Source: a virus (taxonomy: Duplodnaviria > Caudoviricetes). From it: 43,136 bases of DNA. The stretch lies in the IMG/VR virus record IMGVR_UViG_3300026484_000486, positions 1 through 43,136 of that record; one strand, 5' to 3'. Position numbers and translations under genes: made by a program. This document shows, piece by piece, positions 1,851 to 34,366 of the stretch (within the stretch, counting starts at the first letter, position 1; each line of letters starts with the position of its first letter). The notes under the pieces were generated by a model that was given only the letters and a program-made list of their open reading frames with translations, made no database searches and was not told the DNA's origin.

Positions 1851-1898
1851 AGTGTAGCTGTTTTTAAAGCGTTAACTATACGCTCTAAAGAGGAGTTT
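1851..1898 (-). promoter_or_regulatory. Phage promoter motif copy 1: TTTAGAGCGTATAGTTAA-N13-GC-TACACT
   Basis: Same motif with the same 13-nt spacing to a -10-like hexamer at 31492-31541, 38331-38379 and 11081-11116. Confidence 0.75.
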
Positions 1899-3462: not shown

Positions 3463-4023
3463 CTAAAATGGAATTTCATCTTCATCAACTTCCACTACAG
3501 GTATCTGGCTTCCATCTTGCTTTGTGTAACTCTGTTGTGTTTCTTGTTGAGCATAGCTGGCTTGTGCAGGAGCACTATTTTGCATATCTTGATTTTGCAT
3601 TTTTCTATATGGCTCCGCAACAACATTGTAAAGATGATTTTCATCTAGTTTTTTATCTGCATCAACACTGAAAAGTGTAAAGTAAATAGCCTCTTCTTGA
3701 ACAAAAGGATCAAATATCTTTGCTCTTTTATACGCTAAACCGTTTTCACTTACTGCATCTTTAATATTTCCGACAATAACAGAAGGCAAACTCTCTCCTC
3801 GATTACTTAAATTTGTCCAAATATGATAATCAGGATGATCCTCTTTACCTTGAACAGGCACACCACCTTGTGCTACTGTTTTTCCCTCGGGAAATTTTAT
3901 TTTATTAACAGATATAGTAAACTTCTTTCGCACTGTAATTGTTCTAATGTCTAAAGTAATCAAAGGAATTACATTCCCACCTTTTATATAACTGTCTTTA
4001 TAGACTCTTCCTATTTGTGCCAT
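3463..4023 (-). CDS. DUF736-like protein with SSB-type acidic C-terminal tail, putative ssDNA-binding protein
   Basis: HPDYHIW motif, Gln-rich linker, C-terminus VDEDEIPF; lies directly after the helicase. Confidence 0.6.
   Translation of the reverse strand: MAQIGRVYKDSYIKGGNVIPLITLDIRTITVRKKFTISVNKIKFPEGKTVAQGGVPVQGKEDHPDYHIWTNLSNRGESLPSVIVGNIKDAVSENGLAYKRAKIFDPFVQEEAIYFTLFSVDADKKLDENHLYNVVAEPYRKMQNQDMQNSAPAQASYAQQETQQSYTKQDGSQIPVVEVDEDEIPF
3880..3894 (-). other. Candidate parS site 1 (TTTCCCGAGGGAAAA on the sense strand)
   Basis: Exact 15-mer found five times in the window. Confidence 0.7.
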
Positions 4024-4105: not shown

Positions 4106-5446
4106 TTACATAAACTCAGGCATCTCAAACGATGCAGGTTCATCGTTTGGTATCTCTTCATAGACTGTCTCTATGACTTTCACCGGAGGTTTTCTAAATT
4201 TGTCTAACGGTTTTGCAGCATTACCGTGTTCATCAACTTCTACTCTATAAAAATCACTTGTCTGTGGAACAAACATCAATGTTTGAGCAGGATGCTTGTG
4301 CGTATCTTTGTTTTTATTCCATATTACAGTACGCATCTCATCCTGTGGATCTTTTGGCTTAGCTTTGCTAAGATGGAACCAAACATATGCCTCATGGTCT
4401 GCATTCATACTTCCCTTCACGCTTATCATGCTTGATTTCAAATCCTCTTTTGAACTCTGTACTACAACAATAATTGGAATTTTTAACTCCTTAGATAATT
4501 TTCCAAGTTTTGAAAAAGTCTCACTAATTCGTCTCTCATCTGTTTTAAGATCAGGGTTGTTATTTGTCATACGCATCATAGAGTCAAGTGCTACAAGTTT
4601 TATATCGTGGAGCTTATGTTGTAATCGAATCTCTGCCATAATTGCATTTATCTCATAAACATCATCAAAAGTATAAATATTGTCAATGTTCCCATCAAAA
4701 TTACCATCTTCTTGCTGCTGCTCTACATTCTCATCATAAAGATCTTGCCCAAACTCCATACTTCCAAACATTACAGGATGTTCACGGCTCACATTTTCTA
4801 TAAGTCGTGTAAGAACAAAAGTTTTCCCACTCTGCTTAAGACCGCTAATAAAAAATAACCCCTCGTTTCGAATGCCTTTGTTCCCGTGCTTATCTGTCAA
4901 TACAGTGTCTATAAAAGGTATATGTGTTTTTATTCTCTGTACAGGTGGTAATGCTTTTCGAAGTTTTCTTACATCGCTAAGTCGTTTTGTAGATGACGAG
5001 TTGTTAAGACTGACTTGTTTGTCTATAGCGTTTTGTATCATCTGTTGTACAGCATCGGAACCTACGCTTGAATCTTGCAGCATTGTTGTAATGTCTGTGC
5101 TCAGTGCTTGCAACATTTTTTTATGATAATCTTCTCTTAAAAGTGCAATATGCTCTAAAAGAACACTTTGTGAAACTTCTTTTTCAGACATAACCCTTAA
5201 AAGAAGATCTTCAGGATGTGAAACATTGGCTTTTTTCATATACTGCAAAACAGTACTGTCATCAAAGCCAATATCACCATCATAGAGCAATTTCATAACA
5301 TCAAACATGCTCTGTTGTGCAGCATCTTCAAAAAGCTCACGGGACACGCCACTAGCCATTACGGCATTGATATCAATCGTATTAAAATCATTTGCCGTAA
5401 GAATGCTTCCAAGAACAAGCAAGCGAATCTGTTCTAAATTATTCAC
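4106..5446 (-). CDS. DnaB-like replicative helicase
   Basis: N-terminal DnaB-like helical domain (EQIRLLVLGSIL...LF...QQSMF), Walker A SGLKQSGKT, SMEF, VALDSM, LSKELKIPIIVVVQ. Confidence 0.85.
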   Translation of the reverse strand: MNNLEQIRLLVLGSILTANDFNTIDINAVMASGVSRELFEDAAQQSMFDVMKLLYDGDIGFDDSTVLQYMKKANVSHPEDLLLRVMSEKEVSQSVLLEHIALLREDYHKKMLQALSTDITTMLQDSSVGSDAVQQMIQNAIDKQVSLNNSSSTKRLSDVRKLRKALPPVQRIKTHIPFIDTVLTDKHGNKGIRNEGLFFISGLKQSGKTFVLTRLIENVSREHPVMFGSMEFGQDLYDENVEQQQEDGNFDGNIDNIYTFDDVYEINAIMAEIRLQHKLHDIKLVALDSMMRMTNNNPDLKTDERRISETFSKLGKLSKELKIPIIVVVQSSKEDLKSSMISVKGSMNADHEAYVWFHLSKAKPKDPQDEMRTVIWNKNKDTHKHPAQTLMFVPQTSDFYRVEVDEHGNAAKPLDKFRKPPVKVIETVYEEIPNDEPASFEMPEFM

Positions 5447-6702: not shown

Positions 6703-6928
6703 TACTATTTTTCGCCGCCATTTGCGTTTTTTTACTTCGTGTAGCAGATGCAATATAATCTTCAATATTCTTCTTTGTAAAACGAACGGATCCTCTTACT
6801 TTCAAATAATCAATAGCACCATCCATTACCAGTCTATCAACAGTCACGTAACTGACATTTAAAATTTTTGCAAGATCATCTTTTGTAACAGGAACTGCAA
6901 AACATTCCATTTTATGTTCATATTCCAT
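6692..6928 (-). CDS. Cro/excisionase-like HTH_17 protein
   Basis: TKDDLAKILNVSYVTVDRLVMDGAIDYLKVRGSVRF; first gene divergent from the CI-like repressor. Confidence 0.85.
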   Translation of the reverse strand: MEYEHKMECFAVPVTKDDLAKILNVSYVTVDRLVMDGAIDYLKVRGSVRFTKKNIEDYIASATRSKKTQMAAKNSNAL

Positions 6929-7023: not shown

Positions 7024-7437
7024 ATGTTTGAATTCAATACGACAATGGAACGATTAAAGGAATACTTTGCAGTAAAAACTAACGCTGATGTGGCAAGGAA
7101 GCTCGGAATTGACTATAATCAAATAAAAGGGTGGAGCACAAGAAAAAAGGTTACAGTCGCTAATCTTCTTGAATATTTAAAAGATGAGCCAATAAATCTT
7201 ACTTGGCTAGTACACGGAAAAGGAAATATGCGAATAGGGGAGAGTGATGATATTTTAAATGCTATCACAAAAATTGAGCTTGCATTTGAAAAGGATATTG
7301 ATCCAAAAATAATAGAACGCATTAGTGAAGATGAAAAACTCCAAAAACTTCTCTCTCTTTTGGAATATGCTCCAAATGAATTTTTAGAGCAGATAATTAG
7401 CAGACTAGAAGAGTTTAAAAAACTATCTGAAATTTAA
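7024..7437 (+). CDS. CI-like repressor (Phage_CI_repr-type HTH, no S24 peptidase domain)
   Basis: MERLKEYFAVKTNADVARKLGIDYNQIKGWSTR...INLTWLVHGKGNM; divergent from the Cro-like gene. Confidence 0.85.
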   Translation: MFEFNTTMERLKEYFAVKTNADVARKLGIDYNQIKGWSTRKKVTVANLLEYLKDEPINLTWLVHGKGNMRIGESDDILNAITKIELAFEKDIDPKIIERISEDEKLQKLLSLLEYAPNEFLEQIISRLEEFKKLSEI

Positions 7438-8859: not shown

Positions 8860-9195
8860 TTATTTAACATCACAAGCGATATTTACAGCAACCATTGCAG
8901 ATATGTATTCGTTTTTATGTCTATCGTCTGCAGAATCTATGATAATTGCAGCTCTGTTTGCAATATCTTTAATATTTAATATCTTCTTACACTTATTATA
9001 TGCATTTGAAGAGTCTAATATAGATTTAATATATCCTTTAAACTCAAAATAGCTGAAAGCTGTATCAAGATTGTTTATATAATCAAAATCTTTATTATAT
9101 GCAACATTGTAATCATGTGCAAGCCTATATATGCTTTTATCTTCTGCGCACAAAAGAGCAGCAGATAAAAGAAACAAGGTTATTATTTTACTCAT
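8860..9195 (-). CDS. Exported protein, possibly Rap1a/Tai-like immunity fold; probable start at 9195
   Basis: MSKIITLFLLSAALLCA signal peptide; GYIKSILD...C and a terminal AC, reminiscent of Rap1a; ATG overlaps the stop region of 9188..9394. Confidence 0.55.
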   Translation of the reverse strand: MSKIITLFLLSAALLCAEDKSIYRLAHDYNVAYNKDFDYINNLDTAFSYFEFKGYIKSILDSSNAYNKCKKILNIKDIANRAAIIIDSADDRHKNEYISAMVAVNIACDVK

Positions 9196-9394
9196 CTCGT
9201 TCAACCTTGTCACTTATGACATCTTTTATCTCTAAAAGTTTTTTAATCTTATGTATATCAAGATCGTTCACTTTGCAAAATGCTCCTATCTTTACCAAAT
9301 CAAGAAGAACTGGATGATTTACACGCCAATTCTTTATAGTACCTTCTTTTTTCCCTAACATCTCTGCTATATCTCTGTATAGTATATTTTTCAT
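9188..9394 (-). CDS. Small HTH regulator (68 aa)
   Basis: YRDIAEMLGKKEGTIKNWRVNHP HTH; divergent from the plus-strand operon, with palindromes between. Confidence 0.75.
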   Translation of the reverse strand: MKNILYRDIAEMLGKKEGTIKNWRVNHPVLLDLVKIGAFCKVNDLDIHKIKKLLEIKDVISDKVERDE

Positions 9395-9665: not shown

Positions 9666-10055
9666 ATGAAATATTATGAATATAAACAAACGAGAGAAAC
9701 ACAAGTGACAGAACTGTTTAATAAGTATGAAGTGTTTTTTGCTTTTAGCAAATCACAGCTTGAAGAAAAGAAAAAAGATGGTGTTAAGTACTACTCTTTA
9801 GATGGAGGAATGTTTATACCTCAATCAAATTATGATCTGTTTAACGATGAATTTAAGCAACAAGATATGAACTTTATAAAAAAAGCAAAAGAACTTTTTT
9901 CTCCTATTGAAATAATAAGATATGAGCTTGCAAATCACGAGTACTGCATAACTTATGATCTAAGTGATACAAAGGATGTACTTGAAGAGTTTAATTTTAG
10001 TGATGAACAATATAAAGCAGCAATAAAAGACTATTTGTTGCATTGTGAATTTTAA
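9666..10055 (+). CDS. Conserved phage hypothetical protein (FFAFS...YELANHEY)
   Basis: 129-aa ORF with AAGGA RBS. Confidence 0.75.
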   Translation: MKYYEYKQTRETQVTELFNKYEVFFAFSKSQLEEKKKDGVKYYSLDGGMFIPQSNYDLFNDEFKQQDMNFIKKAKELFSPIEIIRYELANHEYCITYDLSDTKDVLEEFNFSDEQYKAAIKDYLLHCEF

Positions 10056-10466: not shown

Positions 10467-11060
10467 ATGGCACGTCCAAAAGGAACAACACGAGCGAAAA
10501 AGCCCATACTTAAGAGAGAGTTTGAGCGACTCATAAACGCAGTAAACAGAAGCTTGGAGATAAAAAGCCCTACAAAGATGAAATTAACGAGAGCTTTTAC
10601 ACTTTTGTATCTTACTGGGTGTCGCGTGAGCGAAATAGCAGAACTAAAAACAAGTGATGTTTCGTATATGATAGAAGAGAACGAGTACTCTTTAGCAAAT
10701 AACACAAAGACAAAGAGTGCAAGACTTATCTCGTTTGATGAAGATTATATGCAAATAGAATTTCTAAAAAAGATACTACCTCTTGATGACGGGTATCTTT
10801 TCGCAAAAAACAACTCAAACAAAGCTATGACAGTAAGTGCTTTAAAATTACTAATGAATAAATTTATTCATAGAGTTTTAGGAGATTTTTATTCTACGCA
10901 TAGTTTTAGATCAGGCTACATTACAACTGCACATCAGCTCGGTTTATCTCTTGAGCATATTAAAACAGATATAGGGCATAAAAACATAGCAACAACTGCC
11001 CGCTATGTAACAGTTACCAGTGCAGAGATTTCCCGAGGGAAAACTTTGCGTGAGTGGTAG
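10467..11060 (+). CDS. Short tyrosine recombinase (catalytic domain only), resolvase-like
   Basis: Full catalytic set R (GCRVSE), K (TKTK), HxxR (HSFR), H (GHKN), Y (TARYV); no arm- or core-binding N-terminal domains; immediately upstream of parA. Confidence 0.9.
   Translation: MARPKGTTRAKKPILKREFERLINAVNRSLEIKSPTKMKLTRAFTLLYLTGCRVSEIAELKTSDVSYMIEENEYSLANNTKTKSARLISFDEDYMQIEFLKKILPLDDGYLFAKNNSNKAMTVSALKLLMNKFIHRVLGDFYSTHSFRSGYITTAHQLGLSLEHIKTDIGHKNIATTARYVTVTSAEISRGKTLREW
11029..11043 (+). other. Candidate parS site 2
   Basis: Exact 15-mer, ~110 bp upstream of parA. Confidence 0.72.
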
Positions 11061-11065
11061 TGAAT

Positions 11066-11130
11066 TTAACTATACGCTTTTGAGCGTGTAGTTATGAAAA
11101 AGTATAGTTATACAATATGAAACTATACGC
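11066..11130 (+). promoter_or_regulatory. parAB promoter with four copies of the (T)AACTATAC(G) half-site, including palindrome TAACTATACG-N8-CGTGTAGTTA, and -10 TACAAT
   Basis: Half-sites at 11067-11076, 11085-11094 (inverted), 11102-11110 (inverted), 11121-11130; TACAAT at 11111-11116. Confidence 0.7.
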
Positions 11131-11152
11131 ATTACTAATGAGGGGTTAGAAA

Positions 11153-11764
11153 ATGACAATAACAGTAGCACATACAAAAGGCGGAGTAGGTAAGAGCACA
11201 CTTGCGTGGCATCTTGCACATGCTTTAAAAGAGATAGGGAAGAGTGTTACACTCATAGACCTTGATTTTCAACAGACACTTTACTTCGTAAACCAGATAA
11301 GAGGTCTCGAGGATATAGAAGTGCTGCAACCGCAGACAGTGCAAGAGGTTATGAAGCTTCTTGTTGGAAGTGAGCATAAAAGTGATTATTACATAGTTGA
11401 TGTAGGTGGATTTGACAGCGACATCAACAGAACAGCTTTAGAGTTCTCTCATAAAGTAGTTGTTCCAATAAGTGAGAGTGTTACAGAAGTCTTAGGATTT
11501 AAAACATTTGAGGGCATCATTAACGAGCTTGTACTTAAAGATACGGAGTTTAACATTGTTCTTAATAACATCCACCCACTCACACGTAACTTTTCTATCA
11601 TAAAAGAAGCCATAGGAAAAAATTACAAACTCTTAAATACAGTTATACGAAGCAGAAAAGTATATAAAACAACCCTTGGTGTAGGTGCTAGTGTATTTGA
11701 TACAAAAAACGACCTGGCAAAAGAAGAGATAAGAGGGCTTAGAGATGAACTTATCAGCCATTAA
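11153..11764 (+). CDS. parA: ParA family partition ATPase (short, no N-terminal HTH)
   Basis: Deviant Walker A TKGGVGKST, LIDLDFQ, YIVDVGG. Confidence 0.93.
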   Translation: MTITVAHTKGGVGKSTLAWHLAHALKEIGKSVTLIDLDFQQTLYFVNQIRGLEDIEVLQPQTVQEVMKLLVGSEHKSDYYIVDVGGFDSDINRTALEFSHKVVVPISESVTEVLGFKTFEGIINELVLKDTEFNIVLNNIHPLTRNFSIIKEAIGKNYKLLNTVIRSRKVYKTTLGVGASVFDTKNDLAKEEIRGLRDELISH

Positions 11765-12584
11765 CAAAGCAACAGCAGGGAAAACGCGAACAGGTGGGGT
11801 AAGTCCTTTTATGGAACTGCCTTTAGATAAAGTATATGCAAATCCACAGCAACCACGAAAAAAGTTTGACGACATCGAGGAGCTTGCCAGAGCTATCAAA
11901 CAAGATGGACTACTGCAGCCTATTGTTGTTGTTAAACGCAGTGACGGATATATGATAGTAAGTGGTGAGCGAAGATACCAGGCTCACAGACAAAATAATG
12001 CGACTACGATTAAAGCACACATCATAGAAGCAGATGAACATAAGGTCTTAGAACTCTCACTCATAGAAAATATACAAAGGGATGATCTTACAGACTATGA
12101 AATAGCAATGCACATTTCTAAACTATGGCTCTCTAAACGATACAGCTCCAAAAAAGAACTTGCAAATGCAGTCGGAAAGTCACAAACATATCTTTCTAAA
12201 GCTTTTGGATGTCTCAATCTTCATGAAGATATACGAAAAGATTTAGAGTTTAACAAAAGAGAGATAGGTCTAACAGTACTAGAAGAGCTCTCACGCATAA
12301 AAGACAAAGATATGCAGCTAGAGGCTTATAAACTCTACAATGATGGGGAGATAAAGAGAGATGACATAAAAGGGTGGAGAGATAAAGAGTGCCCTAAAAA
12401 ACTCAAGCCGGTAAAAACAGAGAAGAAAAAGTATGTTTCCTATGGTTTTGGAACAGTGAATGAGTTTGGAGACTTCATTACGATCATTAAAGGCGATGTG
12501 GAAGGAAGAATGTCTATAGATACACAAGACATTGTAAAAACAGCAAACAACTGTAATTACAAAATCACAATAGAGGAGATATAA
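11745..12584 (+). CDS. parB: ParB/RepB/Spo0J family partition protein
   Basis: NPQQPRKKF, LLQPIVV, CTP-binding GERR motif, LIENIQRDDL, HTH (KKELANAVGKSQTYLSK). Confidence 0.93.
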   Translation: MNLSAINKATAGKTRTGGVSPFMELPLDKVYANPQQPRKKFDDIEELARAIKQDGLLQPIVVVKRSDGYMIVSGERRYQAHRQNNATTIKAHIIEADEHKVLELSLIENIQRDDLTDYEIAMHISKLWLSKRYSSKKELANAVGKSQTYLSKAFGCLNLHEDIRKDLEFNKREIGLTVLEELSRIKDKDMQLEAYKLYNDGEIKRDDIKGWRDKECPKKLKPVKTEKKKYVSYGFGTVNEFGDFITIIKGDVEGRMSIDTQDIVKTANNCNYKITIEEI

Positions 12585-12642
12585 AAATGTTTTGGACAAA
12601 TCTAAAGTTTGAAATAAAAATAACTTTATCAAGGTTTAAAAG

Positions 12643-12936
12643 ATGGCTACAAAAATAAGAACATATGGTGAAGCTTGTATAGCCGAACAAGATTCTATTG
12701 TTCTTAACAATGGTGTTTGGACGCAGAAGCTTCATGTATATAACAAGCCAAAAAGATTGCCAAAAGATAAAGCAGGAAAATATTACAACAAAAAGTTGTT
12801 TGATTACTGGATGGAACAGATGGAAGTAAAAAGAACAAAAAAAATAAAAGAGAAACGACTAAAGTTTCTAATGTTCTGGTCACCAGATCGAGAGCGATTT
12901 TATGAAATAGAGGAGGAAGATAATGAGAGAGATTAA
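12643..12936 (+). CDS. Hypothetical basic protein (97 aa)
   Basis: ORF in operon. Confidence 0.6.
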   Translation: MATKIRTYGEACIAEQDSIVLNNGVWTQKLHVYNKPKRLPKDKAGKYYNKKLFDYWMEQMEVKRTKKIKEKRLKFLMFWSPDRERFYEIEEEDNERD

Positions 12937-13324
12937 ATTTAGGGCGTTTGAAAAAACAGAAAATCTTTTGATAGGTGTTGGAACATTTTATTTTACTTAT
13001 AAATCTATCTTACTTGATAATGGAGAAGAGTATTGTTTTGATGAAGTAGAGCTTATGCAATATACAGGCTTAAACGATAGAAATGGTGTTGAGATTTATG
13101 AAGGGGATATTTTTTATGATGATGCAGATAATCATATAGGAGTTGTTACATTCTTAAACGGAGCATTTGTTTGTGAAAGCTATTTTGATGGGTTTGAGAA
13201 AGAAGAATTAGAACCGTCAGATAATAGATGTTTTTTAGCAGAAAGGTTAATTAGAGATTATGGAAACGTGTTTGAAGTAATCGGTAACTTTTACGAAAAT
13301 AAGGAGCTGTTAGATGAAAGATGA
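12923..13324 (+). CDS. YopX family phage protein
   Basis: MREIKFRAF...LMQYTGLNDRNGVEIYEGDI...EVIGNFYENKELL signature. Confidence 0.92.
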   Translation: MREIKFRAFEKTENLLIGVGTFYFTYKSILLDNGEEYCFDEVELMQYTGLNDRNGVEIYEGDIFYDDADNHIGVVTFLNGAFVCESYFDGFEKEELEPSDNRCFLAERLIRDYGNVFEVIGNFYENKELLDER

Positions 13325-13481
13325 ATATTTAATTGTAAAAGAAGACAAAGACGGGCAATTTTATGTAAATGGTATAGAAAATACATTTGAAAATGCTAAA
13401 CAATGGATTTATGATGCCAATAGTTTTGATGGTACTAATACTAAATACACGATTTATAAGAAGGTAGAGTGCGATGACTAG
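13314..13481 (+). CDS. Hypothetical 55-aa protein (MKDEYLIVKEDKDGQFYVNG...KKVECDD)
   Basis: Below the track cutoff; AAGGAG RBS; overlaps both neighbours. Confidence 0.6.
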   Translation: MKDEYLIVKEDKDGQFYVNGIENTFENAKQWIYDANSFDGTNTKYTIYKKVECDD

Positions 13482-13710
13482 AGAAGAAGCAAAAAAATTT
13501 GAATTTTTTCAACACGACAGAGAAGACATAGAAAAACATATAGATAAAATCTATGACGACTTTGAGAGTGAAAAAACTTGTAACAATTGTAAATGGTATA
13601 ACGAACCTATATGCTCAGCCTCTAAATGTGAAGATATAAACGAGTTAGGTCAATATGTTGTTCGTCCTACTTTTGGATGTAATGAATGGGAAGGCAAAGT
13701 TAATGACTAG
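13474..13710 (+). CDS. Small Cys-rich protein (MTREEA family, copy 1)
   Basis: CNNC...C....C...FGCNEWE, Zn-ribbon-like. Confidence 0.7.
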   Translation: MTREEAKKFEFFQHDREDIEKHIDKIYDDFESEKTCNNCKWYNEPICSASKCEDINELGQYVVRPTFGCNEWEGKVND

Positions 13711-14149
13711 AGAAGAAGCACTTGAATTTAGAGCCAAATGGAGTAGTAGCGCAGAAACAATAGCATTAATAAACCAAATATACGACGACTTTGAAAAAGA
13801 CTTGACAATAGCAGTCAGTGAAAAAACTTGTGATGGATGCATCCATAAACCAAAAGCAAATGAAAATTATCCTGAAGAATGTGGAGTATGTAGTAGATTT
13901 TATGCTGATGAATTTGTGATGATGATAGATGAAAAAAACACAAACCCTGAAATTCTTGCACTCTATCTTTTATATATAGAGTTTCAAGACGCTCCAGACA
14001 AAAAGATGAGCAGCATATTTAAAAAATGTAAAGAGTTTGATTATTTCTCTATGATCATAGAAATAAGCGAAAACATAGGTCTCACAAAAGATGTAAGTGA
14101 TTACATGTATAACAGCGCTCATAAAATGATAGAGGCAGTAAAAAGATGA
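13703..14149 (+). CDS. MTREEA family copy 2 (Cys-rich N-terminus) fused to an unrelated helical C-terminus; probable start at 13703
   Basis: Shares ATGACTAGAGAAGAAGCA, YDDFE and SEKTC blocks with 13474..13710. Confidence 0.65.
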   Translation: MTREEALEFRAKWSSSAETIALINQIYDDFEKDLTIAVSEKTCDGCIHKPKANENYPEECGVCSRFYADEFVMMIDEKNTNPEILALYLLYIEFQDAPDKKMSSIFKKCKEFDYFSMIIEISENIGLTKDVSDYMYNSAHKMIEAVKR

Positions 14150-14346
14150 ACAACACAGTGAAGAGTATTATAAAAAATATTAAAAATATGGGTTTCAATG
14201 AACTTGAAGCACTTAAAGAAAAAGTATATAGTTCTCTTTTAAGTGGTGCAGAAAAAGATGTTCTTGTCTCTACCATAGAAGAAAGATTGCTAAATATGGA
14301 CAGGAATGAAGCAATGGTAGAGTTTAGTGAGGTTGAGCTTGATTAA
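14146..14346 (+). CDS. Hypothetical protein (66 aa)
   Basis: Coupled ORF before the primase. Confidence 0.6.
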   Translation: MNNTVKSIIKNIKNMGFNELEALKEKVYSSLLSGAEKDVLVSTIEERLLNMDRNEAMVEFSEVELD

Positions 14347-15946
14347 AAACATAGATGCACTCAAAGCACAGCTTGATATAGTTGATATTGTTTCAAATTC
14401 TATTGAGCTTAAAAAAGCAGGAGCAAATTTCAAAGCAAACTGCCCATTCCATGATGAAAAGAGTGGCAGTTTTGTTGTAAGTCCTGCTAAACAGATATGC
14501 CACTGTTTTGGATGCGGATGCACTTATGACGCTATTGGTTTTGTGCAAGAGTATAAAAAACTTACTTTTGTTGAAGCTGTGGAAGATATAGCGAACGATA
14601 TGAATTTTACTTTGGAGTATGATGCAACAGCAAAGAAAAAAGACTACTCTAAATTAATGGAACATACAAACAGCTTTTATCTTAAAAATATGGATGCAGA
14701 TATTCACTCGTATTTGATTGAAAGAGGATTGACGAATGAAAGTATTGAAAAATTTGAAATAGGCTATGCACCATCATCAAATGCTCAAACGGCAGAAATA
14801 AACAAACATCTTTTTAGCACTCAAGAAGCTATAGAGTGTGGAATACTTGCAACAGATGAAACAGGAAAAACCTATGCAAGACTTACAAACAGAATATCTT
14901 TTCCTATTAGAAATCATGCAAACAAACTCATAGGATTTGGTGGAAGGATTATAAAAGGAGACAGAGCAAAGTACATAAACTCCCCACAAACACAACTCTT
15001 TGACAAGTCAAGACAACTCTACGGATATAACTTGGCAAAAGAACATATTTATAAAAAAGGTACTTTTACCATAACAGAAGGGTATCTTGATGTAGTTATG
15101 TTTCATCAAGCAGGCATACAAACAGCAGTTGCAACAATGGGAACAGCACTTACAGAACTACACTGTAACATCATTAAAAAAGCTCACGCAAAGGCACTTT
15201 TATGTTTCGATGGAGATAAGGCAGGAATAAACGCAGCATTAAAAGCAAGTAAGCTTTTATCATCTCACGGAATTTTTGGTGGTGTTGTGATTTTTCCCGA
15301 GGGAAAAGATCCTGCAGATATGGTAAAAAGTGGAAATACAAAAGAACTTTTTGAACTTATGAAAAAACCTACTCCTCTTATAGATTTTACACTCAATACA
15401 ATTGCAAACAGTTTTAATCTAAATAAGCCGGATGAAAAAGAAAAAGCACTGCGTGAGATAGAAGCATTTTTAAAAACACTTAGCCCTGTTGTTGCAGATG
15501 AGTATAAAGATTACACTGCAAAGCTGCTGCAAATAAATATAAATCACATACATACACCAAAGGAGACACAGCATTATGAGAAAAACAATCAACGCACCAC
15601 CGTAAATTTAAGCGAAATGAACATTATTAAAACGGCAAATGAGAATGAAACAAATCTCAACGCAGTACTCGATCTCATTGATGGTTCAATGTTTTTGTAC
15701 CATGCTAAAGAATTTGAGATGCTTTTGCATAAAGATATAGAACTGCAAGGATTACTTCTAAGAGAAGATATAAAAGTATATAGCTATGATGAGCTTTTAC
15801 AAGAAGTCTCTATTTTAAAGTACAAATATTATGAGAGTGAGTTAAAAAAACTACTCAACTCTAATCAAAGCTATGAGAGGGTTTCATTCGAGATGAAAAA
15901 AATAAAACTCAAAATGCTTGATTTAAAAAAAGGAATGAAAAGATGA
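14327..15946 (+). CDS. dnaG: DNA primase
   Basis: CHC2 zinc finger (CPFHDEKSGSF...CFGCG), KYINSP, TOPRIM (EGYLDV, CFDGDKAG, KDPAD). Confidence 0.96.
   Translation: MRLSLIKNIDALKAQLDIVDIVSNSIELKKAGANFKANCPFHDEKSGSFVVSPAKQICHCFGCGCTYDAIGFVQEYKKLTFVEAVEDIANDMNFTLEYDATAKKKDYSKLMEHTNSFYLKNMDADIHSYLIERGLTNESIEKFEIGYAPSSNAQTAEINKHLFSTQEAIECGILATDETGKTYARLTNRISFPIRNHANKLIGFGGRIIKGDRAKYINSPQTQLFDKSRQLYGYNLAKEHIYKKGTFTITEGYLDVVMFHQAGIQTAVATMGTALTELHCNIIKKAHAKALLCFDGDKAGINAALKASKLLSSHGIFGGVVIFPEGKDPADMVKSGNTKELFELMKKPTPLIDFTLNTIANSFNLNKPDEKEKALREIEAFLKTLSPVVADEYKDYTAKLLQININHIHTPKETQHYEKNNQRTTVNLSEMNIIKTANENETNLNAVLDLIDGSMFLYHAKEFEMLLHKDIELQGLLLREDIKVYSYDELLQEVSILKYKYYESELKKLLNSNQSYERVSFEMKKIKLKMLDLKKGMKR
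15293..15307 (+). other. Candidate parS site 3
   Basis: Exact 15-mer within dnaG. Confidence 0.7.
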
Positions 15947-16590
15947 AGATAAAACTTCTTCACAGTACCCCGCTGCATATTGCAGATATGGCAATAGGAA
16001 AATGTTGGAACAAAGGCTGTATGCAAACAGAAGAAAAAGCACAGGAACGAATGGACAGAGTTGCAAATAAAAACAAACATGCCTCGACAATAGAACATTT
16101 AAACTATAATTTTAACATAGACGGAATAAGTAGAGCTTGCCTTCAAGAATTGGCAAGGCACAGAATAGCATCGCTTAGTGTAAAATCAAGTCGCTATACA
16201 CTCAAAGAACTAAAGAATGAAGATGCCTTTGTAAATGAAGCTTTATCGCGGTACATATTGGATGATGAGATGAAGCAAAGAGCACAAAAATATGTTGTAC
16301 TTACAGAATATGAAGATGTCAATGCGAGTATTGTTCTTGGCCTTGAATGTTTACGATGGTGTATTGTTCAAGGGGCAAGCAATGATTTTGCAAAATACAC
16401 ACTACCAGAAGCCTATAAAACAAGTTTAATATGGAGCATAAACGCAAGAAGCCTGCAAAACTTCTTAGAGCTGAGAACAAATAAAGCTGCTTTATGGGAG
16501 ATACGAAAACTTGCAAACGAGATTTATGATAAATTACCACAAGAGCATAAATTTTTATTTTCAGAAAAAATATACAAAGAGGAAAAATAA
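15943..16590 (+). CDS. thyX: FAD-dependent thymidylate synthase
   Basis: HASTIEH, RHRxxxxxxxSxRY (RHRIASLSVKSSRY), NARSLQNFLELR, WEIR. Confidence 0.96.
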   Translation: MKIKLLHSTPLHIADMAIGKCWNKGCMQTEEKAQERMDRVANKNKHASTIEHLNYNFNIDGISRACLQELARHRIASLSVKSSRYTLKELKNEDAFVNEALSRYILDDEMKQRAQKYVVLTEYEDVNASIVLGLECLRWCIVQGASNDFAKYTLPEAYKTSLIWSINARSLQNFLELRTNKAALWEIRKLANEIYDKLPQEHKFLFSEKIYKEEK

Positions 16591-16592
16591 GT

Positions 16593-17597
16593 ATGAAGAA
16601 AATATATAATCCAGATAGTACAGAGACACAAAACAAAGTAGTAAACGGGAACCCTACAGGAATTGCAAACTTTGTAAATCCATCAAGAGTTATTTATAAG
16701 ACTATATTCGAGGGACAGATAGCAAGATTTTGGAATCCTGCTACTGTTAATCTTGTTGCAGATAAAAAAGCAGTAAAAGGTTTAAGTGAAGCAGAATTTA
16801 GATCATATGAACTGACTTTTGGAAAATTAATCTTTAATGATAGTGTCATTACAAACAGACTTATGGACAACATAAACAACATCATCACAGATCCAATAGC
16901 AAATGCTTGTATTGCTTTTCAAAGTGGAGAAGAAGCACTTCATAGCTATTCGTATGCTTTTATTGGCGATGATGTTTTAGGAAGTACAGATATTTATGAA
17001 CTTTTTAGAAAAGATGATCAACTTAAATTACTTGCAAATAAAATTAATGCAAGATACAGTATCTTTGATGAACAAAGAGAGATAAGTGATGGAGAAAAAG
17101 CATTTGCAGCTATTGCAAACCTTTGTCTTGAAGGGGTAAGTTTTCCTGCCGGTTTCATAGTTGTATGGGCACTTGGTAGCAAAATGCAGGGAAGTGCAAG
17201 TATGATAACAGAGATTAGCCGTAACGAACTAGGATCACATTTGCCACTCTATGTAAATATCTACAATCATATAAAAGAAGATACAGGGATTAACATAGAT
17301 AAACTAGCAAGAGAAACAGTGATACAAGCAGGAGAAGATGAAAAAGAGTACCTTTTATACTCCACTAAGGGAGTAATGGGATTTAGTGAAAATTCTATAA
17401 ATAATTTTATGGATTGGATAGTGGATAGCAGACTAAGAGAGCTAGGGCTCAAAAGACTCCCTCAAACCATAAATATAAATGATGGACTCATCAAAATATT
17501 TAAGAGCTACTCGGAACTCAATGAAACGAAAACAAACTTTTTTGAGGGAACAGTAAAAAACTACTCAAAACAGAGTTTAGATATGGATGGCTTTTGA
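16593..17597 (+). CDS. nrdB: Ribonucleotide reductase class I beta (R2) subunit
   Basis: FW, D (FNDS), ExxH plus radical Tyr (EALHSYSY), LEG.SF, RNELGSH, C-terminal TNFFEG..NYSK. Confidence 0.9.
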   Translation: MKKIYNPDSTETQNKVVNGNPTGIANFVNPSRVIYKTIFEGQIARFWNPATVNLVADKKAVKGLSEAEFRSYELTFGKLIFNDSVITNRLMDNINNIITDPIANACIAFQSGEEALHSYSYAFIGDDVLGSTDIYELFRKDDQLKLLANKINARYSIFDEQREISDGEKAFAAIANLCLEGVSFPAGFIVVWALGSKMQGSASMITEISRNELGSHLPLYVNIYNHIKEDTGINIDKLARETVIQAGEDEKEYLLYSTKGVMGFSENSINNFMDWIVDSRLRELGLKRLPQTININDGLIKIFKSYSELNETKTNFFEGTVKNYSKQSLDMDGF

Positions 17598-18668
17598 TTA
17601 TTTTACAATAGTATCTATAACTCCACTAGCCATTTCACTAGACTTCAGATAGTTCATAGTGAGATACTTCTTAATTGTATTGGGGTCATTATGCCCTAAT
17701 GCACCACTAAGATGAATACTGTCAAAACCTTGCTCTGCCATAGCAGAAACTATTACATTCCTAAGATAGTGAATTCCAAAATTATTATCGCCTAGGCGTT
17801 TTTTGAGTTTATCTGTTACTCGCCTTATATCTACTATATGATGCCCGGTAATCCTAGATTCAAACACCCATCCGCTCTCATTTTTAAAAAACTCTAAATT
17901 TTCTTTTATGACATTTGGTAAAAAGATTTTTTGCTCTTCATTATTTTTGGTGTCTCTCAAAATATAATAGTTGTTTTTAAAATCTATATCTTCCCATCTA
18001 AGCGAAAGTATCTCGCCCCGTCTTCTGCCTTGTAAAGCAAAAAGAAATAAAGAAAGATAAAACGGATCATCTCCAAACTCGTCATATATAGCTTTGTGAA
18101 TTTTAAGGAGTTCTTCACTTGCATGAGATACTATCTTTTTTGTTTTTGGGAGTTTTATTTTTATTCCATCTAACGGATTAAAAGATATAAGCCTGTTTGC
18201 TATTGCATTTTTAAATGCCGGAGCTAAAACTTCAAGAGTCTGTTTAATGGTACGAGGGGACAATCCTTTTTCTTCTTGAAATTTTATAGAATTTCTAATG
18301 TGCAATTGCCTCAAATCTACAACACGCTTCATTCCACAAATCGGTTTTATGTATCGTTCATAGTGACTGATTCTTATTTTAGTGTAGTTTGTGTCTGGCT
18401 GCTGTTCAAAAAACTTTTCCATAAAGTCGTTAAGTGTTATCTTTTCATTCAGTACAGTATCTTTCTTTTTATACTTTATAGAAATAAGTTCTGACTTTGC
18501 AAAGGTTATTCTATCTTTTTTATTCCATGAACTCTTTTCTCTTAAATCAATAAGTCCTCTATACCTCTTCTTTTCAAACATAAAATTATAAAAAAATACA
18601 GTATATTTACCATTTGCCCACAAATTGTTTTCAACTTTATGAGGATAATCTTCTTTATTAATAGCCAC
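17598..18668 (-). CDS. int: Phage integrase (tyrosine recombinase)
   Basis: 356 aa; R (GRRRGEI), K (TKN), HYLR, LGH, Y (KKYL); adjacent to arm repeats and att core. Confidence 0.95.
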   Translation of the reverse strand: MAINKEDYPHKVENNLWANGKYTVFFYNFMFEKKRYRGLIDLREKSSWNKKDRITFAKSELISIKYKKKDTVLNEKITLNDFMEKFFEQQPDTNYTKIRISHYERYIKPICGMKRVVDLRQLHIRNSIKFQEEKGLSPRTIKQTLEVLAPAFKNAIANRLISFNPLDGIKIKLPKTKKIVSHASEELLKIHKAIYDEFGDDPFYLSLFLFALQGRRRGEILSLRWEDIDFKNNYYILRDTKNNEEQKIFLPNVIKENLEFFKNESGWVFESRITGHHIVDIRRVTDKLKKRLGDNNFGIHYLRNVIVSAMAEQGFDSIHLSGALGHNDPNTIKKYLTMNYLKSSEMASGVIDTIVK

Positions 18669-18692
18669 AATATAATCCCTACTTTATATTAA

Positions 18693-18728
18693 TTAGGTGT
18701 TCACTTAGGTGTTCACTTAGGTGTTCAC
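18693..18728. repeat. Integrase arm-type sites, left: 3 x TTAGGTGTTCAC
   Basis: Exact 12-bp tandem repeats directly upstream of int. Confidence 0.85.
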
Positions 18729-18832
18729 TTTAAAGATAAAAGTATATCTAAATAGAGATAAATATAGAAATCAATCATCATAAAATAGGCGTATATAGGG
18801 GATAACATAGCAATATATAAAATAGCCTCTTT

Positions 18833-18842
18833 GGCTCATAAC
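18833..18842 (+). other. attP core GGCTCATAAC (tRNA-CAT anticodon loop)
   Basis: Lies between two clusters of arm repeats and shares GCTCATAACGG with the anticodon arm of the adjacent tRNA. Confidence 0.75.
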
Positions 18843-18902
18843 GGAATTGTGAGAAGTATGGTAAAGCCCTAAAACATAGGCTTTAAAAGGTTTTAATTTT
18901 AT

Positions 18903-18926
18903 TTGGGTGTTCACTTGGGTGTTCAC
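18903..18926. repeat. Integrase arm-type sites, right: 2 x TTGGGTGTTCAC
   Basis: One-base variant of the left arm repeat, same orientation. Confidence 0.85.
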
Positions 18927-18940
18927 TTTGTTTTCTAAGT

Positions 18941-19017
18941 GGGTTGTTAGCTCAGTTGGTTAGAGCTCGCCGCTCATAACGGCGCGGTCGAGTGTTCGAG
19001 TCACTCACAACCCACCA
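18941..19017 (+). tRNA. tRNA with CAT anticodon, non-initiator (Ile2-lysidine or elongator Met), encoded CCA
   Basis: Full cloverleaf: GGGTTGT/ACAACCC acceptor, GCTC/GAGC D stem, CGCCG-CTCATAA-CGGCG anticodon arm, GAGTG-TTCGAGT-CACTC T arm, ACCA end; G1-C72 pair excludes fMet. Confidence 0.95.
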
Positions 19018-19964: not shown

Positions 19965-22900
19965 TTATTTTCCCTCCTGTATCTTTTTCAACTGTTTTTC
20001 TATCTGTGTTGTAATTATTTGTAGCTCTTCATTCTTTTTATCATAAGCACTTTTTATCATACGTTCTTTTTGTGCTTTAGATAACTTCTTATCATATTTT
20101 GTAGTTTCAACACCTACTTTGATTTTTGTGAGCGTTCTATTTACTTTTTTCAACATAATGTCTAAAACAAAATATGCTTGATTCTCTTTAGAAGACATAT
20201 ACTCTTTTACATTTTTTCCTTTATCTATAAAAGCCTCTTTCTTCTTTTTATTAAAACTTGCTTTTACTGCACTTGCTTTTTGCATAAGCTCATAATATTT
20301 CTCAGTATATTTTGTGCGAGTATCTACAGGCTTGCCTCGAAATCTGTATGTTAAAAACTCTATCGGGTTACGAGCAAAAGGTCTTTCCCCCCACGCTTTT
20401 TTATTCCATAACATATTTTCAGTAGCCTCTTCAACCATTTTTGCAGTAAGCCCAAGATAACCATCAACATAATGCTGCATTTTAATAGGACTCGCCCCGG
20501 TTGCTTTTCCTACTTCTTTATAAAGTAACGGAGTTGTTGCAAAATACTGATCACTTAAATCATCAAGATTTTGCATATAGTGAGGTATTATCTGCGCTCC
20601 TGTCCAATTCTTATTTGTCATGTCTTCAAGTATAGGCTGAAAAAGTCCACTCACATCACCAACACTAAACATTGTTTTTGCGCTCCACATAAAATCTGTT
20701 GCAGCTTCTTTTCCATGCTTTGTGTATATTCCATCTGCTACTATTTCCGGTATTGCAGAAAATGCAAAACCTATGTCGTATGGTCTTGGAATTTTTATAT
20801 GCTTGTCTCCAACAAAAAAGTGCCAATATAAAAGCTTTTCATCTCGAGTTAGTTTTTTATATCTGTCATCATCTCTGTTTTGCAACCAAAGAGCAAGGGT
20901 AAAACCTACGATCATTCCACCCGTAGCATAGATTTTTATCTTGTGTCTTTGTATCTCTCCGAGTTGATTTTTAAATTTAACAGCGTTGCTAAATTTCATT
21001 TCTCCACTTATAGTAAATATTCTTCTTGCTGTTTTGTCTATTCCTACTATTCCTGCTTTCATAAATGGAACAGTAGCCATAAACCCACTTAATGCTCTAT
21101 CGCTGCCTTTTATTGCGAAATCTGTACTCACTTCTCTCGCTTCAAAAGCACTTTGCATATTGCTTTTCCCTGCTTTTTTTGAGAGTTCAAAATCTCCAAC
21201 TCTAGTGCCATACTCAAATATATCCGCACCATATTCCATAGCACTTATTACTCTTGAAAGAACATTAAAACCACGAGCTACTTTTAACATCTCCATAGCT
21301 TGTGACTCGCCGCCAAGAGAAGTTCTCCGTGTTCCATATCCTGCACCACTTGCCATAAATTCTTTATATACCTTGCTTTGTGATATAAAATGATACATCC
21401 CTTTTAAACTTGTATAAACAGGTATAAATTTATTTTTACTTAATACTCCTGCACTTACCGTATCTCTTGTAAAGTTTGTAAGATAAAAGAGAGGATTGTT
21501 TGTAATATTCCAAGTCATAATGTTTTTTATGCTCATCATTGCTTGAACCGCATAATTATATTGCTCTCCTCTAAAAGATGTGAGGGCATCCACAAGTGCA
21601 GCATCTTTTGTTTCAAAATATACTCTCGTATCATTTATGATCACACTGTCTATATAACTGCTTCCATCTCCAACCGGTGGATGACCGTGAGTCCAAAACT
21701 CCAATGCAGCAGGATTGTCTAAAAGATTTTGCTCTATTTCACTCACATCAACTATAAGGTCACTCTGCATATCTCCACTGAGTATTTGCCCGTCTTTTGA
21801 AACTGTTACACCAAGTTCAGCCATTATCTGCGCTACTTTTTTCGCTTGTTGTTGCAAATCACTTTTCACGAGTTTGTCTGCACTGCTTATCTTTGTAGCA
21901 TATACACCACCCATGTTGCTTTTCTCTAACATTTCATAAAACTTTGTTTTCCCTCGGGAAATTAAAGCCTCTTTGATGTTTGCTTCAAGACCGTCTAAAA
22001 TATTCTCCATAATGTTTCCAAGAGAATGTGTTCCACCTGTAAGGCGTTTTCCTATAGCAGCACTTCCAACACCGCCATTTTGAATGGACTCTATAACACG
22101 GTTAAAAGGAACATAGTTTTTATTCATCTCTCTAAAATTAGCTCTTTGAGACGTTGTTATAAGATTCATGTCCACATAAAAATCAAGCATCTTGTTGTTG
22201 AACTCTTGATAATCATCAAACACATCTAAAAATTCAGGGTATTGTTTTTCAAGTTGTAACCCTGCTTCTATCTCATCTTTTGTTATAAGGTTCTCTCTTC
22301 CTTGCGCCATCAACTCTTTTGCTCTTTTTGCCACAAGGTAATCGCTAAAGAGTCTTACTCTCTCTTCGCCTTGACTTGTAACAGGTTCAAGCACTGCATT
22401 AAACGACTTGCCACTGTATGTAATGTCTCCGTTTTCTTTTACAGTAGGTACACCAAAATTCATTGTAGAATGGAGTATGGAACTCACACCATTAACAAGT
22501 TGTAGCGACTTGTAAGCACTATCCATAGCATCACCGCTTACATCGCCTTTTATCTCTGCCTCAATACGTTTGATAGTATGTAGTCTGTCTATAACCTTTT
22601 GTCTTATATCTCTGCTTATCTCTTTTTGGCTACGCTCTATTTTCTTAGCTGTCTTGTTGAGCTTCCCACCTTGTTTGGAACGTAAAGATACATCACTTCC
22701 TTGATAATAAAATTGATGCATACCCTCTTGAAGTCTTGTGAGCTTGTCATGCAATGTTTTATCACTTGCAAGTTTTGCTTCAAAATCTGCTAACATATTT
22801 GGAGCAACAGATTCAAGTATATTGTAGTTCGTGAGATAAAGTCTTATAAACTCTGCAAACCCTTCACTAATAGATAATTTTGGATCTGTTGTATAACTGA

Positions 22901-31491: not shown

Positions 31492-31541
31492 ATATTAGCA
31501 AGTATAAACGTCTTAACTGTATGCTCTAAGCCGTATAGTTA
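31492..31541 (-). promoter_or_regulatory. Phage promoter motif copy: palindrome TAACTGTATG-N8-CGTATAGTTA with proximal half N13 from GC-TAATAT
   Basis: The minus strand reads TTAGAGCATACAGTTAA-N13-GCTAATAT upstream of the giant gene. Confidence 0.75.
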
Positions 31542-32497: not shown

Positions 32498-34366
32498 TTA
32501 CACTCTCCTCATAGCATCAAGTTGATTTTTGTCCATCTTAGCCTGTACACTCTGCTTTGCAACAAGTGAATTACTAAAAGCTTTTTGAAGATCTATTTTA
32601 TTTTTATCTATCATCGCTTTTGCCTTTGTGTTGTTTAGATTTGCTTGTGACTGCTTAAGCATCATATTGAGACGATTGTTCTCGGCTTCAAGCTGTTGCT
32701 GTTGCTGTGCCTGTGGAGAATTTTGTTGCTGTGCATCTTTTTGTTCTATAATCTCTTTTATCTTTTTAGCACTAGGGGAATCACTGTCTTTGAGAATGTC
32801 AGGTATGAGATACTTCACAAGTTCTGGGTTTGTACTTTGCAGCACTTTTAAAAGCTCTACATTTTGTCTGAGTCTCTCTGCACTTGCACTATTGCTCTTT
32901 GGCTTCGCAGTAAATATTAGATCATATTTCCCTACATCAATGGCATTGTTAACGCGAGGTTTTAGCACTCCGCCATCAACACTGTCAAACGCAACACCGC
33001 CATGTTCATTTCTTATGACTTCATTCATTGTCACATAGTTCTGCATTAAATCTTCATCTATAATGCTCACGACTCTTTGTGTGTTGTAATATTGCTTTAT
33101 AAACTCTACAACTTTTTTAACTATCTTCTTTTGTAGATTATCGCTTGAACTCATAAATCTACTTAAACCGACAAGCCCCGTCTGTATTCTCTGCTCTTGT
33201 CCGACACCGCTCATTCTGTTGTTTGCAGTTCCTAGCAGCTCTTTATTTGAGTTTAGGAGTTCACTTATCTGGTTTCTTCCATCTATGATGATATTGAGTA
33301 TCTGTTGTATTTGAACATTTTGCTTAATATCTTTAATGCCGTTAATGTCTTCTACCATTACCGTGGCATTGTCCAGGCTCCACTCATCATTAAACTGCTC
33401 TATATCTTCATTGATTAAGGCACTTTTGTTTATGAGCGTTTTATTATTTGCAAGCATATTTTGCAGTCTAAGCTTTGCATAATTTATGTGATCTTGAATC
33501 GGCATTATATCTCTGTATAATCCCCAGTATTTTATCTTGCCTAAAAAGTCTCTATTTAAAAACTCAACCTCATAAGGAAAACCTTTGAAGTTAAAAGGCG
33601 ATTCATTTTGCAAAAGTATAGTAGAGTTACTCCAAAAACAATAGTAATATTTATCTTGCTTACTCTCTTCATCCCATTTTCTGTACCATGTGTAAGAGAG
33701 CAGTACTCTTTTTCTGTAATTCTCATCTGTAAGCAGATCATCATCAACCATATCACTCATATAATTAAGATTGGAACACTCTTCTATTTTCTCTTTGTCA
33801 AATCCAAGACCGAGCATATCTTCTCTGTCTATCCAAAAACAGCGAGTTAAGTAGCGGGCATCGTCATTATAATTTTTCCCTCGGGAAAACGGATCAAGAA
33901 AAGCTTCACTTGATGGTACATGATGAAGTTCTACATCTTTATGCTCTCTTCCAAACTCATCATATTCTCCTGTTGCTCCTATGCTAAGCTCTGCTATGCT
34001 CACACCTTCTAATGCAAGTTCCATATCAAGACTGTCAATTTGTTCTTGATAATCCCCAACCTGTGTAATTGCTTTGACAAGTGCATTAAGCATATCCGCA
34101 CCGGCTTTGTCTTGTTGCTGTCTTCCAAAAAGCCGAATGTCTATCTCACGCTCTTTTTTAAAACCGAGTATGGCATTATTGTGTTTTGCGATGTTGTTCT
34201 CATACTGCTCAGGCTGTCCGCGATTTGCAAGTATGTTTTTCACAGTAACATCAAGCTGATCACCGTTATAATACTCTCTTACTTTTTTTGAAAACTCTTT
34301 TGTTTTTTTAAAATGATTAGTGGACTCTCTAAGCCACTCTATTAAAAGAACTGTATCTTCAAACAT
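32498..34366 (-). CDS. Portal protein (P22-like)
   Basis: YYNGDQ...L..RGQP...N.I, DPFS...DARY, WGLYRDIMPIQDHIN, GKYDL, C-terminal Gln-rich barrel coiled coil. Confidence 0.9.
   Translation of the reverse strand: MFEDTVLLIEWLRESTNHFKKTKEFSKKVREYYNGDQLDVTVKNILANRGQPEQYENNIAKHNNAILGFKKEREIDIRLFGRQQQDKAGADMLNALVKAITQVGDYQEQIDSLDMELALEGVSIAELSIGATGEYDEFGREHKDVELHHVPSSEAFLDPFSRGKNYNDDARYLTRCFWIDREDMLGLGFDKEKIEECSNLNYMSDMVDDDLLTDENYRKRVLLSYTWYRKWDEESKQDKYYYCFWSNSTILLQNESPFNFKGFPYEVEFLNRDFLGKIKYWGLYRDIMPIQDHINYAKLRLQNMLANNKTLINKSALINEDIEQFNDEWSLDNATVMVEDINGIKDIKQNVQIQQILNIIIDGRNQISELLNSNKELLGTANNRMSGVGQEQRIQTGLVGLSRFMSSSDNLQKKIVKKVVEFIKQYYNTQRVVSIIDEDLMQNYVTMNEVIRNEHGGVAFDSVDGGVLKPRVNNAIDVGKYDLIFTAKPKSNSASAERLRQNVELLKVLQSTNPELVKYLIPDILKDSDSPSAKKIKEIIEQKDAQQQNSPQAQQQQQLEAENNRLNMMLKQSQANLNNTKAKAMIDKNKIDLQKAFSNSLVAKQSVQAKMDKNQLDAMRRV
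33874..33888 (-). other. Candidate parS site 5
   Basis: Exact 15-mer within the portal gene. Confidence 0.7.

Follow-up and report, generated by a model that had tools for sequence, protein, structure and literature searches.

Integration genes and a predicted ParABS partition module together in an uncultured temperate phage family of vent Campylobacterota

The window analysed here, a stretch of 43,136 bases, is an entire IMG/VR virus record (IMGVR_UViG_3300026484_000486), described as 'linear' and, by CheckV, as 90% complete. To judge from the sequence data, the phage is uncultured and its hosts are Sulfurimonas-like bacteria living at vents: close relatives were located in genome bins of Sulfurimonas and Campylobacterales, and the runs in which the phage is present are hydrothermal-vent metagenomes. 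Between positions 10,467 and 19,017, family scans matched a tyrosine recombinase, the partition proteins ParA and ParB, YopX, DnaG, ThyX, the small chain of ribonucleotide reductase (RNR) and an integrase, the last lying beside a phage attachment site (attP). The integrase and ParAB occur together in all seven relatives with contigs long enough (G001, G006, L011, G004, G002, L128 and L130). Likely, the phage persists either inserted in its host or as a partitioned free circle. Insertion is demonstrated for the family by the junctions of integrated relatives; maintenance as an episome is suggested by partition genes that are intact, conserved and fast-diverging, by a plausible centromere and by the frequency of contigs in the attP form. 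That ParABS maintains the free circle, stably or transiently, we regard as about an even chance.

Integration at tRNA-Met

The features of lambda-type integration are all present (Table 1), with the integrase beside attP, arm-type repeats on both sides and a core that attP has in common with the host site (attB). An initial annotation of this DNA had proposed a complete integration module, and integrase, arm repeats, 11-nt core and tRNA-Met were all recovered. The integrase is 66-75% identical across seven relatives. In the 174-nt stretch between the arm repeats, the longest match to the neighbouring tRNA is the core GCTCATAACGG, and a match of 11 nt was reached in 2 of 2000 shuffles of the inter-arm region. 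The identical core is found at the crossover in attL and attR of integrated relatives, and on this sequence evidence the junctions prove the 11-nt core to be the site of crossover.

Four relatives (G002, G004, G008 and G006) are integrated in tRNA-Met. In G002, on a 422-kb contig, the left junction consists of the host tRNA-Met 5' half, the core, two arm repeats, a complete second tRNA-Met and a homologue of g19001, and the right junction of the integrase, arm repeats, the core and the host tRNA 3' half. Contig C47 of G004 ends in the two junctions and shares its arm repeat with the window; contig C235 of G008 has the left junction. G006, classed as a provirus, has the integrase-side junction followed by a second integrase-bearing element. 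The integrase of this second element (L022, 1-7800) is 51% identical and is accompanied by different arm repeats (GGGTACCACTT); the junction region looks like a tandem array at one tRNA-Met.

The unintegrated attP form was found in the window, G001, L011, L128 and L130, and the L011 genome bin also contains an intact tRNA-Met (attB) that is identical to the L011 attP over ~52 nt. With four relatives integrated and four relatives plus the window in the attP form, homologues are thus not confined to the integrated state; such confinement had been named in the initial annotation as part of what would refute a dual lifestyle. The attP core of the window is bridged by contigs of runs X1, X2 and X3; in X1, which may be the source sample of the record, the core lies within a contig of 977 nt, from which overlapping contigs run on across attP. 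When contigs of four runs were compared with attP, no attL or attR junction was among the matches listed, and since assembled contigs drop rare variants, these missing junctions are no sign of absence. The window's own attB was not found; the tRNA-Met of bin G007 is one base off the core. This bin holds a 1.9-kb piece of the window phage, a weak host link. Its contigs have a word depth of ~9-13 in X1 and ~10 in X2 as against ~20 for the phage, depths that are not copy numbers and from which nothing was concluded; in X3 the G007 contigs are nearly absent and the phage is present, from which likewise nothing was concluded about the host.

Two attP designs exist in the family, as seen at six loci (window 18695-19017; L020 7126-7298; L021 1960-2125; L027 1-235; L041 1490-1700; L006 15636-15900). 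In G001, L011, L130 and G006 the tRNA-Met 3' half comes after the core, by which the host tRNA is rebuilt. In the second design (window, L128, G002, G004 and G008) the 11-nt core stands alone between the arm sites, so that the host tRNA-Met is split on integration. Likely, the complete phage tRNA-Met just beyond the P' arm replaces the split host copy; a tRNA-Met outside the arm sites has the same layout within attL of G002, G004 and G008. Besides, contigs of runs X2 and X3 have two P-arm repeats instead of three (a 12-nt deletion at 18693-18704), and the arm-type sites therefore vary in copy number between populations.

The relatives were found via alignment-based searches. A single-sequence ParB scan of viral contigs gave no relative, and a scan of metagenome contigs (1/64 parts) was dominated by generic ParB patterns, with a best identity of 44% and no family members. 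A portal search in 401 Campylobacterales species genomes recovered the family in G002 only, six other genomes having portals of 32-37% identity.

Partition genes, palindromes and small recombinase

The parA and parB genes are adjacent and overlapping. ParA matches the Pfam families CbiA, AAA_31 and MipZ, as well as NCBIfam NF041546 over its full length (111.9 bits, below the cut-off of 180), and its deviant Walker A motif, of the form KGGxxK[ST], is kept in 8/8 family members. ParB scores 79.4 bits against ParB_N (cut-off 26.3), 113.9 against TIGR00180 (cut-off 58.45) and 21.8 against HTH_ParB, just below the cut-off of 22.6, and it combines the motifs of the CTP-binding fold (GERRxRA, ENxQRxDL) with a helix-turn-helix (HTH). 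The closest solved structure is Helicobacter pylori Spo0J (4UMK, E 9e-27), in an alignment that runs through the HTH, while the top NCBIfam match is Noc, at 131.5 bits and below its cut-off of 315. The recognition helix GKSQ(T/S)Y(L/I/V)SKA is kept in all eight members. Among relatives, identity is 39-83% for ParA and 46-65% for ParB versus 81-87% for TerL, and divergence faster than that of the neighbours is as expected of incompatibility determinants. The nearest plasmid homologues of both proteins are partition pairs on Campylobacterota plasmids, such as Hydrogenimonas pISO32_1, which has the order rep-dnaB-parA-parB (ParA 41%, ParB 35% identity). No Helicobacter phage was present among 131 phage records matching ParA (organism tally, two genera unnamed) or among the 10 organism names listed for 62 ParB-matching records (8 more unnamed; 23 'Bacteriophage sp.').

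Exactly five 16-bp palindromes TTCCCNNGGGAA, counted with the pattern (A/T)TTTCCCGAGGGAAAA, occur in the genome, where 0.24-0.26 are expected; none of 100 shuffles reached five. All five lie in coding DNA, in unrelated genes, and read as (I/F)SRGK in three cases and as FPEGK in two. This use of two frames indicates that the DNA sequence is kept, not the peptide. Palindrome 2 recurs in the same place as an exact TTCCCNNGGGAA copy in eight related loci (G001, G006, G004, L125, L126, L128, L129 and L130), and as a one-mismatch copy at the recombinase 3' end in L011. A copy is found in dnaG in 10 of the 11 relatives holding that gene, and in the portal gene of G001, G006, G004, G002 and L127. Across relatives, whose sites lie in the recombinase 3' end, dnaG, the giant gene and the portal gene, the arms TTCCC/GGGAA are kept and the central dinucleotide is free; relatives without the recombinase-gene copy have a palindrome in parB or TerL instead. 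By their number and conservation, the five palindromes are strong candidates for the centromere sites of ParB. No canonical parS was found in the window within 3 mismatches. The consensus parS is TGTTTCAC-GTGAAACA and the consensus Noc-binding site (NBS) is TATTTCCC-GGGAAATA, and the replacement of Arg by Gln after G-K-S is described as one of four specificity switches toward NBS (Jalal et al., PMC7383237). The phage ParB has the Noc-type Gln at this position, the other three switch positions being not Noc-like in a manual alignment, and the half-site TTTCCC of its presumed target matches the Noc-binding site.

The small recombinase has R53, K81, H145, R148, H171 and Y180, which fit the R-K-H-R-H/W-Y signature of tyrosine recombinases and are invariant in 8/8 family members, and it is 66-86% identical in 14 related loci, of which 12 have the order recombinase-parA-parB. 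It aligns to the catalytic domain alone (residues 108-269 of archaeal XerA 4A8E; positions 85-260 of the XerA model) and scores far below the XerA, XerC and XerD cut-offs. The imperfect 11-6-11 palindrome that follows its stop codon has more half-sites at 11102 and 11121 and is present at the equivalent position after the recombinase in seven relatives; its right arm is the operon-head motif, present at three other operons. This palindrome is a candidate for the recombination site of the small recombinase or for a parA operator. In L127 (10001-16550) and L014 (10004-18136), polyvalent-protein genes come directly after the recombinase and parAB is not there. Palindromic copies of the operon-head motif occur at two places in the window, behind the recombinase and ahead of the giant gene, and may mark a rearrangement point.

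Altogether, the plasmid-maintenance module put forward in the initial annotation is present in all its parts, namely the intact 197-aa recombinase, ParA, ParB and five parS-like palindromes, three of which lie outside the segment from 10,467 to 19,017.

Table 1. Coordinates of the features discussed, in window positions
Feature	Position	Strand	Remarks
Tyrosine recombinase, 197 aa, catalytic domain only, basic N-terminal tail	10467..11060	+	Pfam Phage_integrase 59.1 bits
Imperfect 11-6-11 palindrome	11067..11094	.	directly 3' of recombinase stop; overlaps operon-head motif copy 11078-11095
ParA, Walker-type partition ATPase, 203 aa	11153..11764	+	KGGVGKST at residues 9-16
ParB, Spo0J/Noc-type CTPase-fold, predicted centromere-binding, 279 aa	11745..12584	+	GERRY, ENIQRDDL
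parS-like palindrome 1	3880..3895	.	within g3463
parS-like palindrome 2	11028..11043	.	recombinase gene 3' end, ~110 nt ahead of parA
parS-like palindrome 3	15292..15307	.	within dnaG
parS-like palindrome 4	21947..21962	.	within giant polyvalent-protein gene
parS-like palindrome 5	33874..33889	.	within portal gene
Tyrosine integrase, 356 aa	17598..18668	-	Pfam Phage_integrase 56.4 bits (cut-off 27.1); PHROG integrase E 2e-38
P-arm repeats, three tandem 12-nt AGGTGTTCACTT	18695..18730	.	arm-type
attP core GCTCATAACGG, 11 nt	18834..18844	+	identical to 18972-18982, tRNA-Met anticodon stem-loop
P'-arm repeats, two 12-nt GGGTGTTCACTT	18905..18928	.	arm-type
tRNA-Met (CAT), complete, phage-borne	18941..19017	+	beyond arm sites
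Operon-head motif copies	1872-1889(-), 38352-38369(-), 31513-31530(-, 3 mismatches), 11078-11095		fourth copy within 11-6-11 palindrome
DnaG-type primase in parA operon	14327..15946	+	family scans
DnaB-like replicative helicase	4106..5446	-	family scans
CI-like repressor	7024..7437	+	sub-threshold Pfam match; PHROG repressor E 9e-6

Gene setting and competing explanations

An 18-nt motif, TTTAGAGCGTATAGTTAA, heads four operons with one copy each, in the orientation of the genes and 48-57 nt ahead of the start codons of g1293, g37520, the giant gene and parA. A variant (...ATACCACTTAA) occupies the four homologous positions in G002, G004 and G006, the motif being 28 nt long in relatives. Likely, TTTAGAGCGTATAGTTAA acts as promoter or operator for a single regulon to which parA belongs. 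The AACTATACGC/TTTAGAGCGTATAGTTAA repeats were also considered as parS and rejected, since they occur once per operon head at this fixed place and orientation, and change between relatives whose ParB recognition helix stays unchanged.

Elsewhere in the genome, the CI-like gene is divergent from an HTH_17 (Xis/Cro-like) gene at 6692-6928. Two HTH switches had been proposed in the initial annotation; this pair is clear, though it lies outside the segment, and the second (9188-9394 versus 9666-10055) was reduced to a sub-threshold match. An initiator-like gene had also been placed within the segment, where no open reading frame in 12643-14346 matched an initiator family; an initiator-like lead at 6073-6765 (g6073) is DnaB_2/Phg_2220_C-like by language-model features alone. 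Family scans identified a P22-like portal, major capsid protein, TerL and lysozyme among virion and lysis genes, along with the DnaB-like helicase, the CI-like repressor and HTH_17 proteins. TerL is ~34-36% and the portal ~29% identical to those of Helicobacter phages and prophages. A 3832-aa polyvalent protein, encoded by a quarter of the genome (19965-31463, minus strand), combines SNF2 helicase, methyltransferase-like, DarB-like and LPD38 parts, and a gene with a dATP/dGTP diphosphohydrolase N-domain comes after its gene. That the giant gene might be a virion RNA polymerase reading the operon-head motif was rejected, its product being the SNF2/methyltransferase-like/LPD38 polyvalent protein. 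In-frame tandem repeats at 730-1209 (30 nt x ~15), 39746-40063 (159 nt x 2) and 40406-40615 (42 nt x 5) fall in tail-fibre-like genes and their neighbours. At both ends the record breaks off within open frames of this tail-fibre region, most likely because the assembly broke there.

In the explanation that we prefer, the integrase inserts this temperate phage into a host tRNA-Met gene, and the phage's own ParABS would keep the free circle as an episome of low copy number while cells divide. ParB would load at the five 16-bp palindromes and then spread, ParA would separate sister copies over the nucleoid, and the small Xer-like recombinase would resolve dimers, possibly at the palindrome beside its gene; replication of the circle could be provided by the DnaB-like helicase and DnaG primase of the phage. 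Such an episome might be a lasting state in its own right, chosen in place of integration, or a waiting stage that precedes integration or follows excision. As regards the choice between integration and an episome suggested in the initial annotation, both modules are indeed intact and conserved together, but a replicating partitioned prophage was not seen, and neither a plasmid record nor a Rep turned up.

Several observations weigh against this explanation. No plasmid-type initiator (Rep) had a family match in the Pfam, PHROGs and NCBIfam scans, no iterons were found, and the family portal is not found in PLSDB plasmids, where the best matches have <=28% identity and come from unrelated taxa. 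The 197-aa recombinase has no core-binding domain of the kind found in Xer/Cre-type resolvases, and it occurs without ParAB in 2 of the 14 loci (L014 and L127). Binding of ParB to the palindromes is a candidate interaction, and the sites lie 4-13 kb apart round the whole genome, unlike clustered plasmid centromeres. The attP-form contigs could equally be virion or lytic DNA, and all the evidence is metagenomic. Finally, the motif ahead of parA also stands ahead of three virion-gene operons, and dnaG, thyX and the RNR gene are part of the parA operon, which points to co-expression with lytic functions; parA appears to be controlled like the three virion operons, and this counts against a purely lysogenic role.

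These last features would be accounted for if ParABS served the lytic or replicative phase only, positioning replicating genomes, with lysogeny purely integrative, and 4 of the 8 relatives of known state are integrated, so that integration is a proven lysogenic mode. However, the rapid divergence of the two partition proteins is in line with pressure for incompatibility among replicons sharing a cell, a dimer-resolving recombinase beside parAB is typical of stable plasmids, and a cell on the point of lysis has nothing obvious to gain from partition; we know of no described case of partition used in the lytic phase only. We consider a solely lytic role unlikely, though to be taken seriously. 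The wide spacing of the sites could also mean that ParB is mainly a CTP-dependent clamp that regulates or organises the phage genome in the manner of KorB or BisD, and not a centromere protein: the five dispersed sites would then cover the whole 43 kb, operons would be silenced or activated, and ParA would be a partner or modulator. ParB-family proteins of mobile elements are known as regulators, KorB is among the solved relatives of the phage ParB, the best NCBIfam match is to Noc, a non-partition paralogue, and BisD of ICEclc is reported to activate genes at a distance (PMC12409273). We nevertheless hold the clamp to be distinctly unlikely, given a full-length ParA with intact Walker motifs, always adjacent to and overlapping parB, the homology of the pair to Campylobacterota plasmid partition pairs, and palindromes that lie inside genes and not at promoters, where the associated motif is another sequence.

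A combination of both functions is conceivable, in which a ParB-CTP coat spreading from the five Noc-site-like palindromes would set the state of the phage, beyond what the CI-like repressor does alone. A genome-wide switch of this kind, like that of KorB or Noc, would silence and segregate the free circle, which would stay a quiescent episome of slow-growing vent bacteria up to the point of integration or induction; this proposal is speculative and we think it quite improbable. The module might instead be the relic of a phage-plasmid ancestor that gained an integrase and no longer aids maintenance, as phage-plasmids are described to convert into integrative prophages that retain partition genes (PMC10879196). 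Open frames, catalytic motifs and palindromes are, however, kept at 46-65% ParB identity, also inside integrated prophages, and such conservation across divergent relatives indicates purifying selection; a relic is very improbable.

If the preferred explanation, an integrating phage with a partitioned free circle, is true, the family would provide an example from nature of phages that hedge between chromosomal and plasmid lysogeny in chemolithoautotrophic vent Campylobacterota. To our knowledge, there is no cultured phage of these hydrothermal-vent bacteria. The ParABS set, which is small, orthogonal and equipped with a Noc-like site, could then also be a genetic tool for vent Campylobacterota. 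With integrated and free forms and two attP designs, the family is a comparative system, and the question of why integrating elements retain partition genes, addressed so far mainly for integrative and conjugative elements (ICEs), could be approached here.

Comparison with known systems

P1 is temperate and has a Walker-type ParA, an HTH ParB and a centromere consisting of one clustered parS; its replicon is of the RepA/iteron plasmid type, and it has no chromosomal integrase or attP. The window phage is likewise temperate and shares with P1 the types of ParA (Walker) and ParB (HTH), a centromere (here a candidate) and a tyrosine recombinase. Unlike P1, it has an integrase with attP; its five palindromes are dispersed, its recombinase lacks a core-binding domain and no Rep was recognised. 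In P1, multimers are resolved by Cre (PMC10879196). P1-like phage-plasmids that turned into integrative prophages with their partition genes retained are described in the same source. Other phage-plasmids may alternate between states, namely Escherichia coli P88, Pseudomonas phiC725A and Staphylococcus phi80b/phi84b (Pfeifer et al., PMC7969092). These are likewise temperate and integrated or episomal, but they have other hosts and unrelated virion modules, and none is from Campylobacterota.

Cluster A actinobacteriophages are reported to use parABS for prophage inheritance in place of an integration cassette (PMC5559632). They thus have an integrase or parABS, whereas the window family has both in every member that could be checked. 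The partition system of the SXT/R391 ICEs is of the actin type. These elements replicate and actively partition the excised circle (PMC4489591), and so resemble the window phage as integrative elements that partition a transient extrachromosomal form, although they are conjugative elements and not phages.

The closest cultured phages are those of the Helicobacter KHP30 group, which are distant (TerL ~34%, portal ~29% identity) and have genomes of ~26 kb as against 43 kb for the window phage. KHP30 is described as episomal though integrase-encoding, with a KHP30-like prophage integrated in one strain (PMC7688985). As to the partition genes themselves, Noc and its NBS are alike in the 16-bp palindrome, the TTTCCC half-site, the Gln after G-K-S and the CTPase motifs; here, however, the TTTCCC blocks lie one base further from the dyad than in NBS, the score is under the Noc cut-off and a ParA partner is present. 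Hydrogenimonas pISO32_1 shares the small ParA, the Spo0J-type ParB and the overlapping genes, but its pair lies in a plasmid replicon with rep and dnaB, and the 12.6 kb of it examined contained no TTCCCNNGGGAA site. In keeping with the initial annotation, which knew of no characterised example in this host group, none was found as far as searched, the main text of two Sulfurimonas phage papers being without ParB or partition. The combination of integration and partition has thus already been seen in a few other phages and ICEs, and what is new here is the host group.

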